A DNA stretch of 19,654 nucleotides from Candidatus Heimdallarchaeota archaeon. Its GTDB lineage: Archaea > Asgardarchaeota > Heimdallarchaeia > Heimdallarchaeales > Kariarchaeaceae. How positions within the stretch are numbered: the first letter of the stretch is position 1; each line of letters starts with the position of its first letter. The notes beneath the pieces were generated by a model. It had not been told where the DNA came from and made no database searches. It saw only the letters and a program-made list of their open reading frames with translations. This document shows positions 11,512 through 16,999 of the stretch, piece by piece. The stretch spans positions 1 through 19,654 of the forward strand of contig WAKA01000107.1 in the NCBI GenBank assembly GCA_015523565.1, written 5' to 3'. A program made the translations under genes and the position numbers.

Positions 11512-11967
11512 ATGCAGATAGACAAGCTGAAATTAACCACAATCAAGTATGTCACAGAAAGGAAGGACTTAGTTATTGATGCTATTCTGAACATTTTGCC
11601 AGAAAACATGAAAAAGAGTATTTCCCCCAAAAGCTTCAAACGGACATCTCTTATTGGTCAATATGGAGACCCCATGCTTTTTTTGGAGTTATCTATTTCA
11701 AAGAACCCAGAGCAGGCAGTGAAACATATTTTTTCCAAGTTAACAGAAACAGAGAAAAAACGGTTAATTGAGGAATTTGACACCCGAATGGATGATGAAA
11801 CAACAACTTTCTATTTCAGGTTGGATAAGTTTGCTCCATTACAGGATGAATTATATCTTAATGATGGATCGGACGTCATTAAAGCAGAGATAAAATTCCG
11901 GATTTATGGCAAATATAATGCAGAAGCCGTCAAACAATATCTCAAAGATCTCATGGAGATAGAGTAA
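11512..11967 (+). CDS. Predicted RNA-binding protein of the archaeal exosome/RNase P superoperon (COG1325-like)
   Basis: YVTE-x3-V, GQYGDP (cf. GHYGNP), FYFRLDK and a DVIK tail; located directly upstream of Rpp30. Confidence 0.8.
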   Translation: MQIDKLKLTTIKYVTERKDLVIDAILNILPENMKKSISPKSFKRTSLIGQYGDPMLFLELSISKNPEQAVKHIFSKLTETEKKRLIEEFDTRMDDETTTFYFRLDKFAPLQDELYLNDGSDVIKAEIKFRIYGKYNAEAVKQYLKDLMEIE

Positions 11968-12602
11968 TGAAAGAGTTCATTCCTTTAATCAACTTTTCTC
12001 GAATTGATTTGGCAAGACAAATTGGCATTACGCATTTTGTTATTGAAGAGGAGGGAATAAGCATCCAAGACAATATATTCAATAGGAAGACAATTGTTGA
12101 GAAAAAAGACAATTGGAAAAGCTCAAATCTTAATTCTAAAGTTCAAGGAATCCGTAGAAAATATGATTGGATTAGTGTGAAGGCAAAAAGCGCCAAAATG
12201 ATTAATGTCTGCACAGCTAGCAGATATATTGATGCAATCCATGTTGATGCATCCTCCCCACTGAAAATTGTTCACCAAAAATATTTGAAATTGATCAGAG
12301 ACTATGGAAAATGTATTGAAGTTGAAGTTTCTCCTCTTTTTGAAATTGATAAAAATCCAAAGGAAATCAATCGTATCATAAAAATATTCAATTTATTGTC
12401 GCAGAAAAATTGTCCCGTCATTTTGGTTTCCTATGAAAAGGTCAGACGTTACAAAAACATGCAGACAATTGCAGAGGCAATGGGATTAAAAGTGAATCAA
12501 ACAGATATTGAACCATTTGTTGACAGACTTGAAAAAAACCGAATGAAAAGGCAGGGCAAATTAATTGGAGATGATATAGAGGTGATAGAAACTGACGATT
12601 AA
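11967..12602 (+). CDS. rnp3: Ribonuclease P protein subunit Rpp30 (divergent)
   Basis: RRKYDWISVK, IDAI, IEV, PVILVS and the R...IAEAMGL tail fit the Rpp30 pattern. TAATG overlap with the upstream gene; conserved position before Pop5. Confidence 0.7.
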   Translation: MKEFIPLINFSRIDLARQIGITHFVIEEEGISIQDNIFNRKTIVEKKDNWKSSNLNSKVQGIRRKYDWISVKAKSAKMINVCTASRYIDAIHVDASSPLKIVHQKYLKLIRDYGKCIEVEVSPLFEIDKNPKEINRIIKIFNLLSQKNCPVILVSYEKVRRYKNMQTIAEAMGLKVNQTDIEPFVDRLEKNRMKRQGKLIGDDIEVIETDD

Positions 12603-12900
12603 ACATCTCAAGAAACGGTATCTCTACGTCACATTTTATGGAGAAAAAACAAGTGCAAAGACATTTGACAAAGAGGTGAGAAAATATTTGCGATACTATT
12701 TTGGAGAATTGGTGACCGTAAATTCTACATTTCAGATAATTGAAATGCAAGAGCAAAACGCTATCGTAAGAACCAACCATAAATACCAAGCTTTTGTAGA
12801 AGCGGCAATCACGCTTTGTGGATCCAATAATTTTATCGCGGATATCAAGAGGAAATCTGGAACAATCAAAAGTTTGAAACGCAAAATGAATTTAACATAA
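12592..12900 (+). CDS. rnp2: Ribonuclease P protein subunit Pop5 (Rpp14/Pop5 family), probable CTG start
   Basis: Extending the tracked ORF upstream gives (M)TIKHLKKRYLYVTF...YFGE...IVRTNH...SGTIKSL, containing the hallmark KRY and SGTIK motifs. GAGGTGA SD at 12579-12585, in-frame TAG at 12586, CTG at 12592. Confidence 0.85.
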   Translation: MTIKHLKKRYLYVTFYGEKTSAKTFDKEVRKYLRYYFGELVTVNSTFQIIEMQEQNAIVRTNHKYQAFVEAAITLCGSNNFIADIKRKSGTIKSLKRKMNLT

Positions 12901-12946: not shown

Positions 12947-13534
12947 TTATTTAAGTCTTCGACCGTTTGCTCGCAAGCTTGGACGTGCCTTTTCAACACC
13001 ATATCCTTTTCGGAACAATCCTCTTGATCTCTTGCCTGCTGCGGTAAGTCCACGGAACGTACGACCCTTGTGCACTTTTCGGTTGATCCAATTGATGCGT
13101 TTGTCCTTGACAATGGCAGGGTGCACAGGATCCACTAAAATAATCTCAAACCATTTGGATCGACCATCTTGTCCCACCCAGTAAGAACCAAGAACTTCCA
13201 AGTTTGGGTATTTTCTTTGGGTTCTCGTTTCGGCGATCCATCGAAGGTTTCGACCGCTGGTCTTATCAATGGCAAGGTTAACACCCCTGCTCCTGCCCCG
13301 GTTTGGTCTGGACATACGGCGGGAACCCCTTCGGACTTTAGTCCTGACAATGATGAAACCAGGTTTTGCCTTATAGCCCAATGCCCTTGCCCGGTCAATG
13401 CGCAAAGGTCGATCAACGCGGACAATTGTATTTTGCCGTCTCCATTCAATCAGTCTAGGTTTTTGGATTTCCTTGAATTCAGGGGAATTTCTTTTCCTCC
13501 AGAACATTCTGACATTCTTGTACAGATTAGTCAT
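12947..13534 (-). CDS. rpl15e: 50S ribosomal protein L15e
   Basis: RPLRIDRARALGYKAKPG, KYPNLEVLGSYWVGQDG, FEIILVDP, GRTFRGLTAAG. The ATG at 13534 follows SD-like GGATGTGA; the track's GTG at 13543 lies inside that SD. Confidence 0.97.
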   Translation of the reverse strand: MTNLYKNVRMFWRKRNSPEFKEIQKPRLIEWRRQNTIVRVDRPLRIDRARALGYKAKPGFIIVRTKVRRGSRRMSRPNRGRSRGVNLAIDKTSGRNLRWIAETRTQRKYPNLEVLGSYWVGQDGRSKWFEIILVDPVHPAIVKDKRINWINRKVHKGRTFRGLTAAGKRSRGLFRKGYGVEKARPSLRANGRRLK

Positions 13535-13547
13535 AATTATCACATCC

Positions 13548-13573
13548 CTGTGTCACTTTACGATCATTCACAG
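13548..13573 (-). promoter_or_regulatory. Box C/D-type kink-turn (k-loop) hairpin in the rpl15e 5' leader; candidate L7Ae site
   Basis: CUGUG-AAU-GA-U-C-GUAAA-G-U-GA-CACAG: 5-bp C-stem, 3-nt bulge ending in U, tandem G.A/A.G, U.U, C-G, 5-nt loop. Immediately followed by the SD GGAUGUGA. Confidence 0.65.
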
Positions 13574-13596
13574 CAAGTTGAAAGTGATTTGATAGC

Positions 13597-13604
13597 ATTA
13601 AAAA
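13597..13604 (-). promoter_or_regulatory. Putative TATA box for rpl15e
   Basis: TTTTTAAT on the minus strand ~24 nt before the k-turn hairpin, preceded by the palindrome CTAACGTTAG. Confidence 0.4.
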
Positions 13605-13622: not shown

Positions 13623-15356
13623 TCAATAAGCATTTGCGCGGTATTCTGGTATACCATATTTTTTGATTTTTGTCAGGTCTATCTCAAAAGCAGAAATTGG
13701 CACCTTTATGTCATGGTTTTCCAATATTTCAACCTTGATTTCGCCAATATGCCCAACCTGCTTTCCTTCAACTATGATTTCAGCACTACGACCATCAATG
13801 AAGTAATTGTTTTCAGTTTCATTCAATGAATAGTCAATGCCAGTTAACCTAAACAATGCGTCAAGTATTCTATGGCTGGTTTCAAAGGTTTCATCAGAAC
13901 CTGCCAAGACTACCGCAGCTTTTGTCAACGTAATTACGTCTGTTCCCTCACGAACTGCCACTTCCCCTGTTTCGAAAATATGGTGGGGAAATTGCACTTC
14001 AGAATTTCGTCCAACAAATCTGATCAAACCAGGCAATAAGTCAGGTCTTAGGTACTCATAAGTTGAGGTAACCGGATTTATCAAGTGTATGGCATGTTCC
14101 TCTAAAAACTTGGAGTCTCTCAGAACATTGTTGCTGATGGTCTTGGAATCTGTAAGATTGTAATTTATTACTTCTTGAAGACCGCATCCCACAAGAATTT
14201 CACGTATCATATTCTCCTTTTGGGTGGAAATGTCCAATCCACCAACTGTGAAAAGATTGGCAGTTGAAGGGCCTATTTTGTTGTAATCTGCGGCAATTGC
14301 AATCTCTTCTGAAAGGTCCACCCAATGCATAATATCCTGCCTCCATGGCCCATACTGTACCATCATTATTCCTTTTTGCTTTCCAGGCAATACATCATGC
14401 CTTCTTTTCCTTAATAAGGACATCATGCGTTTCTCTGTAAATTTAGTTCCAAGGTATTTATTGACTTCTTTAACAGGCACCTCCAATGAATGGGGTTCTT
14501 GAGGTGGATAAATAACATCTCCAAGACCATAGGCATTTGGATAATGGACAAGAACTGTTTCAACAGTAGCACCCCTATCTTGCATGTTCTGCGCCAAAAG
14601 GGAAATGACGACATCAACGGCCTCCTTGTTTGTACCAGTCACTTCTATAAGGACATCTGTTGTTTCTTCAGTAACACGCCCCACATCATTGGAATTGATG
14701 ATTGGAGGCATAGAAAGAACCTTGCCGTTTGCGTCAAGCAAAATGGGAACTTTTTCGAAGGAGGCCAATATGTGTCCGTATTCTTGACCTTTAGGATGAA
14801 CCTTCATAATTTCAGATATTGGCATTTCCTCTTCGAAACCGAGAGGAACAAATTTGAAGGATCGAGGAACCAAATCGTATTTGATAGGGCTTTGTATCAT
14901 ATGAAGATTGTAGATTCCAATTGATGTCCTTTTCCTTTTTCGTCCAAATGAAAAATCCACTTTGTCCTGAACCTGTATCAATTGTTTGATAAGAAAATTA
15001 TTTAATTTGAGGTTCCTTGCCACAACCGCCGCTATGTAAGGGCGTATTTCCTTTAATTCAGGATTAACGGTAATTTCATAGCCAGATGCAGGAAATTTGA
15101 TATTTGGCAATCCCTGCATGTCAATGAGTCCTCTAACTTCTCTTGCCAAACCTTCTGCAGACCATAAGTCTGGACGGCTAGCTGTCTTGATATCGATTGA
15201 AATTTTAGTATGTCCATTCTCATCAGGTCCTTCTGGTTCAGAATCAACTTCTGCCTTTGCAAAAGAAACCCATTTGTCCAATTCTTCAGGGGTTAGAGGT
15301 TTGTCTAGTCCAAGAAGTCTGGAAAAGTCCTCTATTGATATGTCTATTGTAACCAT
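13623..15356 (-). CDS. pheT: Phenylalanine--tRNA ligase beta subunit (archaeal/eukaryotic type)
   Basis: SRPDLWSAEGLAR, LSMPPIINS, WRQDIMHWVDLSEEIAIA, LRPDLLPGL, IFETGEV, FIDGRSA. TAATG-coupled to pheS with a GAGGTG SD. Confidence 0.96.
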   Translation of the reverse strand: MVTIDISIEDFSRLLGLDKPLTPEELDKWVSFAKAEVDSEPEGPDENGHTKISIDIKTASRPDLWSAEGLAREVRGLIDMQGLPNIKFPASGYEITVNPELKEIRPYIAAVVARNLKLNNFLIKQLIQVQDKVDFSFGRKRKRTSIGIYNLHMIQSPIKYDLVPRSFKFVPLGFEEEMPISEIMKVHPKGQEYGHILASFEKVPILLDANGKVLSMPPIINSNDVGRVTEETTDVLIEVTGTNKEAVDVVISLLAQNMQDRGATVETVLVHYPNAYGLGDVIYPPQEPHSLEVPVKEVNKYLGTKFTEKRMMSLLRKRRHDVLPGKQKGIMMVQYGPWRQDIMHWVDLSEEIAIAADYNKIGPSTANLFTVGGLDISTQKENMIREILVGCGLQEVINYNLTDSKTISNNVLRDSKFLEEHAIHLINPVTSTYEYLRPDLLPGLIRFVGRNSEVQFPHHIFETGEVAVREGTDVITLTKAAVVLAGSDETFETSHRILDALFRLTGIDYSLNETENNYFIDGRSAEIIVEGKQVGHIGEIKVEILENHDIKVPISAFEIDLTKIKKYGIPEYRANAY

Positions 15357-16846
15357 TATTCATCCACCTCGATTCCAGAGCTTATTTCTACTTCCCTAAG
15401 CCAATTAAGGTCTTGGGAAAAGAGTTCACGAATATCGTCGATTTTATTTTTAACCATGAACAGCCTGTCAACACCCAAACCCCAAGCAATGACGGGATAG
15501 TCGATGCCATATGGTCTGACAACTTCTGGTCTAAAAATACCAGCACCACCAAATTCAATTCGACCCAGAGTTGGATGTCTCGCGCTTAATTCGACAGAGG
15601 GAGAAGTAAATGGGTAATAATCAGGTCGGAAATTTACCTCTGTTGCACCCGCAATATCCTCTGCAAATATTTTCAGTATCCCAAGCAAGTCCCTGAATGT
15701 AATTGACGGATCGCAGACAATTCCCTCAACTTGATAAAATTCAACTCCATGTGTAGCATCAATATCATCAGGTCTGAAACATTTGGCAATGGAAAAGTAT
15801 TTTTCAGGAGGATTTACTTTTCTCAATGTTCGGGCCGAGATCGCGGTTCCTTGAGGTCTCAAAAGGAGTCGAGCCGCCTTTCTGGGATCCCATCGATATT
15901 TGTATCCACGAGAACCAGTAATCCATCCATCCTGATGCGTTTGCTTGACATTCTCGACAAATATCTCATCGGGAAGGATTCCGTGAGTTGGATTTTCAAT
16001 CAGGAAAATGTCAGAATCTTCCCTGGCAGGATGATCTTGTGGAGCAAACAATGAATCAAAGTTCCAGAACTCTTGTTCAATCAACGGTCCCTTCATTTCT
16101 TTGAAACCTAGTGCAATTAATTTTTCCCTAAGATGGTCATGAAAATGTCTGTAAGGATGATATTTTCCAGGATAAATTATCCGAGGCTTGCTTTTGATAT
16201 TGTATGGCTTGAAATTGACATTTCTCCATTTCCCAGATATTATCAAGTCAGGGGTGAGGTTACTGACTTCTTCTACAATCTTGATTTGTTTGCCATGTTT
16301 TAATGGAGAGATGAAAATCTCATGTCGAACAGACTTCTCGACCAGTCCACGTTTCAGCAGAACCTCTGCAATTTCAACAGGGATAGGCTCATGTTGGTTG
16401 ATTTTTTCTAGGGCCTCTTGAAGTTCATCTGAGACTGTCTTGTTTCGATCCAATAATTCTATTGACCCTTTGTCAATTTTGATCATTCCCTCTTTTTTAA
16501 GGACACCAATACCTGCCGACACATCGCTTTTGTCAACCTTCAAGGTATTCTGCACATCCTTGATGTGTAGAGAGCCATGTTCAAAAAGATACTTCATCAG
16601 TCTTCTCTCAATCAATTCGTTCTTTAGGGAAGCTTTTCCTCTTGAAGTGAGTTTATACTCCTCAATCTCTTTTGTTTCCTTGTTGATTAAACCATATTTG
16701 TGGAGAAGTTCAACAAGTGAACTCACTTTTCCAATATCAAAACCAGTTTGGTTGGAAAGTTCATCAATACCCACCACCTGTCTGGATTTTTCAATTTTCT
16801 CTAGAACCAGACCTGCATCTGGCGTCAATCTAATCTCATTTGGCAT
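15356..16846 (-). CDS. pheS: Phenylalanine--tRNA ligase alpha subunit (archaeal/eukaryotic type, N-terminal winged-helix extension)
   Basis: FWNFDSLFAPQDHPARE, FRPDDIDATHGVEFYQVEG, YYPFTSPS, GAGIFRPE, AWGLGVDRL. ATG at 16846 is preferred because GGAGTTGA ends 5 nt upstream; the track's TTG at 16855 is inside that SD. Confidence 0.97.
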   Translation of the reverse strand: MPNEIRLTPDAGLVLEKIEKSRQVVGIDELSNQTGFDIGKVSSLVELLHKYGLINKETKEIEEYKLTSRGKASLKNELIERRLMKYLFEHGSLHIKDVQNTLKVDKSDVSAGIGVLKKEGMIKIDKGSIELLDRNKTVSDELQEALEKINQHEPIPVEIAEVLLKRGLVEKSVRHEIFISPLKHGKQIKIVEEVSNLTPDLIISGKWRNVNFKPYNIKSKPRIIYPGKYHPYRHFHDHLREKLIALGFKEMKGPLIEQEFWNFDSLFAPQDHPAREDSDIFLIENPTHGILPDEIFVENVKQTHQDGWITGSRGYKYRWDPRKAARLLLRPQGTAISARTLRKVNPPEKYFSIAKCFRPDDIDATHGVEFYQVEGIVCDPSITFRDLLGILKIFAEDIAGATEVNFRPDYYPFTSPSVELSARHPTLGRIEFGGAGIFRPEVVRPYGIDYPVIAWGLGVDRLFMVKNKIDDIRELFSQDLNWLREVEISSGIEVDE

Positions 16847-16999
16847 ATTGTTCAACTCCTTTGCAAATAATATCTTTGCTCAATTCCTTTGTTTTTCCAT
16901 TAATGTTGTTGAAAACTATAATGTAAATTCCAAGGCACCTAACCTCTACAAGCAGATTGGAATGTAGACATTATTAAACCTTAGCTAATTGACGGATGT

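Follow-up and report, generated by a model that had tools for sequence, protein, structure and literature searches.

Feedback control of ribosomal-protein synthesis is well worked out in bacteria but hardly in archaea. The closest described system to the element reported here is the eL15-Euryarchaeota leader (RF03144), a published structured leader of rpl15e (Eckert and Weinberg 2020, PMC7247131). This leader is a bioinformatic candidate, assigned to eL15 since only rpl15e lies downstream (PMC7247131). The core of the published seed alignment reads ACGA-NAUGU-stem-GAAUCG, and some members lack the 5' hairpin (PMC7247131). Eckert and Weinberg compared the motif to a bulged-G module of the eL15 binding site and regarded the mimicry as unclear (PMC7247131).

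Several described systems involve L7Ae and kink-turns (k-turns). In archaea, L7Ae acts as a translational repressor by way of k-turns in 5' UTRs (Daume et al. 2017, PMC5539422; Huang, Ashraf and Lilley 2019, PMC6298567). The affinity of L7Ae for a simple k-turn in vitro is in the picomolar range. In an engineered L7Ae switch, the minimal L7Ae-binding BoxC/D hairpin GGGCGUGAUGCGAAAGCUGACCC is placed on synthetic mRNAs, and such hairpins in the 5' UTR let L7Ae repress translation (PMC5539422, PMC6298567). Yeast L30, a protein of the L7Ae family, limits its own synthesis by binding a k-turn in its transcript, one that is similar to the rRNA site of the protein.

In the ribosome, the bulged U of Kt-15 (helix 15 of 23S rRNA) is the base that L7Ae recognises, and substitution of this U by G lowers the affinity about 100-fold (PMC3553981). 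The bulged U is held in a pocket formed by L7Ae and L15e (PMC1808587). Solved archaeal 50S structures with chains of both proteins include 1S72, 4V6U and 6SKF. Kt-15 is a complex k-turn, and Mg ions alone do not fold it; Kt-15 and box C/D k-turns fold only upon protein binding (PMC4382518).

Here we analyse a hairpin in the rpl15e leader of a Heimdallarchaeia genome and compare it with these systems. "The window" refers to the whole stretch of DNA that was analysed (19,654 nt).

Architecture of the rpl15e leader

The rpl15e gene lies on the minus strand behind pheS and pheT. The 88-nt gap between pheT and rpl15e on this strand houses a TATA-like box and the hairpin. The features of the locus are as follows.

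15356-16855, minus strand: pheS
13623-15356, minus strand: pheT, with its stop codon at 13623-13625
13597-13604, minus strand: TATA-like box TTTTTAAT, putative rpl15e promoter, 19 nt past the pheT stop codon
13574-13576, minus strand: predicted transcription start, from the archaeal TATA-to-start spacing and the conserved box-to-hairpin distance
13569-13573, minus strand: 5' strand of the C helix, CUGUG, pairing with 13548-13552
13566-13568, minus strand: three-nucleotide bulge AAU (L1-L3)
13562-13565, minus strand: core of the bulged strand, with G1b A2b at 13565-13564, U3b at 13563 and C4b at 13562
13557-13561, minus strand: terminal loop GUAAA, capping the short NC helix
13553-13556, minus strand: non-bulged strand, with G4n at 13556, U3n at 13555 and G2n A1n at 13554-13553
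13548-13552, minus strand: 3' strand of the C helix, CACAG
13539-13547, minus strand: Shine-Dalgarno (SD)-like GGAUGUGAU, directly 3' of the hairpin, followed by AAUU and then AUG
12947-13534, minus strand: rpl15e coding sequence, 195 aa, Pfam PF00827 (L15e), E 2.3e-70

The product also matches solved archaeal L15e chains at E 5e-62, and its closest public protein relatives come from MAGs labelled Heimdallarchaeota, plus one labelled Kariarchaeota. Alignment with relatives places the start codon at AUG 13534-13532. The open-reading-frame list gives a GTG start at 13543 (window 13541-13543); this codon lies inside the SD, and we reject it, as the alignment of relatives favours ATG 13534. The gene is apparently monocistronic, because the genes downstream of it sit on the opposite strand.

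The neighbourhood of rpl15e has features of its own. Genes for a PF01877 RNA-binding protein and for the RNase P proteins Rpp30 and Pop5 (window 11512-12900, plus strand) converge on rpl15e. L7Ae is a subunit of archaeal RNase P as well, so that three L7Ae-related RNPs meet here. A gene for a Ras-family GTPase is also within the window, in keeping with an Asgard origin.

The hairpin spans 26 nt of the minus strand (13573-13548) and reads CUGUG-AAU-GA-UC-GUAAA-GU-GA-CACAG. A first-pass annotation of the window had listed the elements of a k-turn here, and all of them are present in the sequence. As in box C/D, position 3b.3n is occupied by U.U; at 4b-4n there is a C-G pair. By the definition of PMC5061560, a simple k-turn has a C helix, a 3-nt bulge, G.A and A.G pairs on opposite strands, and an NC helix; this arrangement is found in the window and in 12 of the 12 distinct sequences of the window's family. 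The sequence features of an L7Ae site, a bulged U at L3 and tandem G.A pairs, are found as well, with U at L3 invariant. The hairpin thus has the full set of sequence features of a simple k-turn of the box C/D type; that it folds into a kink, is bound by either protein and represses translation is inferred.

The surroundings of the hairpin also agree with the first description. The TATA-like box (13604-13597) lies 23 nt ahead of the hairpin, close to the spacing of about 24 nt given there. Transcription would start about 22-25 nt past the box, and the hairpin would begin about 0-3 nt from the 5' end of the mRNA; the proposal that the hairpin forms the very 5' end of the transcript fits this predicted start and the conserved distance from box to hairpin. 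On the other side, the SD-like sequence at 13547-13539 directly follows position 13548, so that the hairpin is butted against it, as described; 13 nt separate the end of the hairpin from the AUG. The SD adjoins the hairpin from outside and does not lie within it. Therefore, any occlusion of the SD must be steric.

Conservation and covariation in the family of the window

The window's family comprises 12 species genomes, 11 of which hold an rpl15e match. A simple k-turn hairpin is found at the same place in all 11. It is also found on four metagenome contigs, three of them with sequences already present in the genomes. Conservation and covariation of the C stem in related genomes had been proposed as the first check on the motif, and both are borne out: all 11 family genomes hold the hairpin, and in the 12 distinct sequences 59 of the 60 C-stem cells form standard pairs.

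These cells were counted on an alignment anchored on the invariant GA dinucleotides, an anchoring that is independent of pairing; MAFFT alignments of the hairpin put two rows out of register and were therefore not used for the count. When the partners are slid by one or two positions, 31-53% of the cells pair. None of 5000 column shuffles matches the observed pairing. Four of the five C-stem pairs change on both sides, giving eight different stem sequences. Variants in relatives include GCGUG/CACGC, UGGCU/GGCCA, GGGCU/GGCCU, AGGCU/GGCUU, GAGUC/GACUC and GAGCC/GGUUC, compared with CUGUG/CACAG in the window. The family genomes are kin, and the conservation counts overstate their independence; even allowing for this, eight stem sequences are difficult to account for unless pairing is under selection.

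The core is far more constant than the stem. In all 12 distinct sequences the bulge has A at L2 and U at L3 (AAU, UAU or GAU), both GA dinucleotides are invariant, and 3b is always U or C. The terminal loop varies in sequence and length among relatives.

The placement of the hairpin is conserved as well. A T/A-rich box is picked up by pattern in nine of the 11 family genomes, and none is picked up in the remaining two. The distance from the start of the box to the hairpin is 29-33 nt in eight genomes and 23 nt in one, which has an 8-bp stem. The C helix is also close to the SD in all relatives: its 3' strand is followed within 0-3 nt, or overlapped, by an SD of the GGUGA type.

In part of genus g11 (G023, G024, G028, G034, G035, G038, G039, G041 and G043), the match to L15e itself is split into two in-frame pieces. 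Their query ranges overlap (residues 3-158 and about 147-193), and both pieces lie in one open frame of 212 aa. Such an arrangement points to a short duplication or insertion within L15e.

Frequency of the motif and model searches

A pattern consisting of a 5-bp stem, NNU, GA, 5-14 nt, GA and the returning stem was searched on both strands of the 3.57-Mb genome. It matches 537 times, compared with about 300 times in shuffled sequence, and about three matches are expected per window-sized stretch. A stricter pattern that includes the 4b-4n pair still has 0.9 expected matches per window-sized stretch. The bare k-turn pattern by itself is no more than chance. An automatic filter for an SD, a start codon and an open reading frame passes 12 of the 537 matches, and 11 of these look incidental. 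The rpl15e hairpin is the sole match of the 537 that adjoins both the SD and the start of an identified gene; the same pattern finds no further SD-adjoining k-turn hairpin at an identified gene in the whole genome. The hairpin stands above chance because it is conserved with covariation in its C stem and because its placement at an SD and start is unique among the 537.

Nearest-neighbour folding by minimum free energy, applied to the leader, to the 26-mer and to a 49-mer, gives z of about 0, that is, no signal. This null result is expected, because energy models do not score G.A pairs.

An Rfam scan of the window region returns no match, and at the loci of 16 relatives it returns nothing relevant. 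RF03144 has no match at the window locus at E up to 10. At its gathering score of 33.7 bits, none of 83 genomes of the class rises above the cut-off, and the window's own genome is likewise without a match at the rpl15e leader. Haloferax and Methanosarcina, used as controls for the RF03144 search, are both recovered.

The eL15 leader in sister groups and other archaea

All other families of the window's order (f2, f3 and f4) and the two further families of the class with sampled matches (f5 and f7) have a different core at the rpl15e leader. It consists of A-NAUG-U, a stem-loop and G-AA-U, as in the example ACGA-GAUGU-CC-loop-GGG-AA-UCGU. Many Woesearchaeota, Methanosarcinales and other archaea have this core ahead of rpl15e as well, and it matches the 3' hairpin of the published eL15-Euryarchaeota alignment almost letter for letter. 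Haloferax and Thermococcus also have the classical eL15 leader. The first-pass annotation named no earlier description of such regulation. In this respect it has to be corrected: a structured rpl15e leader was already published (RF03144; PMC7247131), and it stands at the same position in all sister families.

The classical eL15 core occurs throughout the Asgard class (leaders L016-L032 and L034-L053), yet RF03144 detects no Asgard leader. Judged by this core, the range of the eL15 leader is wider than its name and Rfam model suggest. One likely reason why RF03144 misses the Asgard leaders would be their lack of the 5' hairpin of the model. The leaders of family f5 (L043-L053) have an extra outer helix, in which an upstream CUCC pairs with the downstream GGAGG SD and thereby encloses the ribosome-binding site. 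This predicted helix is a second sign of a leader that acts on initiation.

Among everything sampled, the simple k-turn form at rpl15e occurs only in the window's family. It differs from the classical core by U to A at 2b and by GAA to UGA or AGA on the other strand. The simple k-turn is most simply read as derived from the classical core, because all sister groups have the other form.

The window hairpin and the eL15-Euryarchaeota leader are both directly upstream of rpl15e, between promoter and SD. Both have a hairpin, an asymmetric internal loop and NAU-G on the 5' side, and feedback on L15e is presumed for both. However, the core of the window is AAU-GA..GA, whereas that of the leader is NAUG-U..G-AA (loop AAUGA / UGA compared with NAUGU / GAA). 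The window also lacks the 5' hairpin, for which the predicted transcription start leaves no room, and its locus has no match to an Rfam model. Overall, the window hairpin looks like a simplified, family-restricted variant of the known eL15 leader class.

Likeness to Kt-15 of 23S rRNA

Helix 15 of the 23S rRNA reads CCG-AA-U...A-GAUG-UGG in the window's own genome and in its relatives. The classical leader and helix 15 share the loop strands (GAUG and AA) and the closing pairs (A-U and U.G). The strands are swapped: the terminal loop of the leader caps the helix that in rRNA continues into the rRNA body, and the outer helix of the leader corresponds to the rRNA hairpin of helix 15. In other words, the hairpin loop caps the C helix in rRNA but the NC helix in the leader, as in a circular permutation. 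The published bulged U (U292, Pyrococcus) fits the U of GAUG on the 3' strand. We read the eL15 leader as a circularly permuted copy of Kt-15, a reading that draws on sequence and published statements, not on coordinates.

With contacts taken from the papers and not from coordinates, the sister leaders share A-NAUG-U and G-AA-U with the letters of helix 15, whereas the window keeps only NAU-G and A1n. In k-turn terms, the window hairpin keeps A at L2, U at L3 and G1b.A1n. In contrast to the window leader, the rRNA of the window's own family keeps the complex form.

Among the papers in the library searched, none links the eL15 leader with L7Ae or Kt-15. In the text of Eckert and Weinberg, k-turns, L7Ae and helix 15 are all unmentioned (PMC7247131).

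L7Ae and its own k-turn leader in the lineage

The genome encodes a standard L7Ae; its match to the A. fulgidus protein of a solved complex with box C/D RNA has E 1.6e-39. Upstream of its l7ae-rps28e-rpl24e genes (L001:1801-1885, minus strand; G000 contig C95) lies a leader that reads ACC-UGAU-GA-A-GGUAAUU ... AAUUACC-C-GA-GGAG. In this leader the NC helix is a 7-bp stem, and the 3' strand of the C helix is the SD. A leader of the form ACC-(U/A)NAU-GA-A-[stem-loop]-C/U-GA-GGUGA precedes l7ae in about 20 genomes of the order, which fits the published autoregulation by L7Ae. Repression by L7Ae via k-turn leaders appears to operate in the window's lineage, because l7ae has its own conserved k-turn leader there.

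The rpl15e hairpin resembles the autoregulatory k-turn of L7Ae in being a 5'-leader k-turn near the SD, with predicted protein-dependent folding and repression by occlusion. It differs in the gene, since the autoregulatory k-turn controls l7ae and not rpl15e. It also differs in layout: the l7ae leaders have the SD as a strand of the C helix and a long NC helix, whereas in the window the SD only adjoins the C helix and the NC helix consists of two steps plus the loop. The BoxC/D tag shares with the window hairpin the order of C stem, NNU bulge, GA, U.U, Watson-Crick pair or pairs, small loop, GA and C stem; unlike the tag, the window element is natural, conserved and tied to one ribosomal protein gene. 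In yeast L30 the regulator is encoded by the regulated gene, whereas here L7Ae is encoded elsewhere and the regulated gene is that of its ribosomal neighbour.

L30e, the second L7Ae-family protein of the genome, was also considered as the binder and rejected, as nothing links it to L15e or Kt-15. A published RIP-seq study of Sulfolobus L7Ae leaves L15e unmentioned, which bears on the leader only if that species has it.

Proposed mechanism and alternatives

The hairpin is probably a feedback brake on L15e synthesis. We give about an even chance to a fuller reading, in which it is the window family's version of the eL15 leader and an RNA copy of Kt-15, through which L15e, with L7Ae, feeds back on its own gene. 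The rpl15e mRNA would begin with a copy of the rRNA site at which L15e and L7Ae are neighbours. Once L15e (with L7Ae) exceeds the free rRNA sites, both proteins would assemble on the k-turn at the 5' end, and their binding would lock the hairpin in the kinked form. With the C helix ending at the SD, the bound proteins would keep the 30S subunit off, and L15e synthesis would fall. Most archaea would keep the complex Kt-15 core, while a few substitutions in the window's family would have produced a simple k-turn of the canonical kind, for which stronger binding of L7Ae is expected. The window has U.U at 3b.3n, as in box C/D, which folds only with L7Ae and thus suits a switch. A site bound with picomolar affinity might, on the other hand, be permanently occupied, and then the k-turn would not be a sensor.

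A more general claim can be made for the whole leader class: the eL15 leader may be a two-protein sensor derived from Kt-15, which L7Ae folds and L15e completes, with the simplification in the window's family shifting recognition toward L7Ae. We hold this claim tentatively, at somewhat less than an even chance. The first-pass annotation had proposed that L7Ae controls L15e, as cross-regulation of a different ribosomal protein. A role for L7Ae is plausible and finds support in the k-turn features, the L7Ae-tag layout and the k-turn leader of l7ae; free L7Ae alone, however, explains the gene specificity less well. Nor is the pairing of the two proteins arbitrary, as L15e is the partner of L7Ae at 23S Kt-15, with a shared bulged-U pocket. 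L7Ae with L15e is preferred as the sensor over L7Ae alone, because it accounts for the gene specificity as well as for the Kt-15 core.

Repression of rpl15e by L7Ae alone via the canonical k-turn, with the change of core marking a sensor switch from L15e to L7Ae, is unlikely but a serious contender. The family core is of the type preferred by L7Ae and matches a validated minimal binder; L7Ae binds k-turns tightly unaided, represses its own and other mRNAs through them, and has a k-turn in its own leader in this order. Such control is more plausible in the window's family than elsewhere, since it is here that the site became canonical. However, it leaves unexplained both the placement of the hairpin on rpl15e and the Kt-15-identical complex core of the sister lineages. 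In addition, L7Ae serves many RNPs, so that its free pool would poorly measure the need for L15e. The converse, direct binding by L15e with no need for L7Ae, is the assumption behind the eL15-Euryarchaeota leader. It agrees with the rule for ribosomal leaders, which is autogenous control by rRNA mimicry, and with rpl15e being the only gene downstream, the basis on which the eL15 leader was assigned. We nevertheless rate it as improbable: the ribosomal k-turn is held by L7Ae, with L15e only completing the pocket, and the canonical k-turn of the family keeps exactly the features that L7Ae reads (the GA pairs and U at L3). It would be odd if such a site escaped L7Ae in the cell.

There is little probability that the hairpin, capped by protein, stabilises or localises the mRNA, for example against 5'-to-3' exonucleases, with no translational feedback. 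Stable 5' structures can protect transcripts, and the hairpin lies at the predicted 5' end. Protection, however, gives no account of the invariant k-turn core, of the Kt-15 likeness in sister groups or of the constant contact with the SD. Three further explanations were weighed: that the motif arose by chance, that it is a piece of a box C/D sRNA, or that it belongs to the pheT terminator. In their favour, the bare motif occurs frequently in the genome, its folding energy is not significant, and its boxes resemble C and D. Against chance stands its covarying conservation at a single orthologous position throughout the family genomes. Only 9 nt separate the C-like box from the D-like box, which leaves no room for a guide (about 10-12 nt); the element has no guide sequences, no C'/D' or other second box pair and no match in Rfam. 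A pheT terminator is contradicted by the position of the hairpin past the promoter-like box and by the lack of a U-tract behind it. These three explanations, which we consider extremely improbable, are therefore rejected.

Implications

The preferred reading remains feedback on rpl15e by L15e with L7Ae, through the window family's version of the eL15 leader. The finding adds a variant to a known class: the leader class was described before, and what is new is the simple k-turn variant limited to the window's family, together with the structural reading of the eL15 class. By taking the leader as a copy of Kt-15, this reading offers a structural interpretation of a published leader whose mimicry was left unclear. 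The leader provides a small and clean test case, a natural k-turn of 26 nt that precedes a gene different from l7ae and comes from the closest archaeal lineage to eukaryotes. Natural leaders that respond to L7Ae would be useful parts for engineered switches. A new principle is possible as well, in which a ribosomal protein is regulated jointly with the protein next to it on the rRNA, or by way of that protein. Finally, the complex form in the sister groups and the simple form in the window's family would make up a natural experiment, in which an RNA-protein site has been rebuilt while the gene stays under control.
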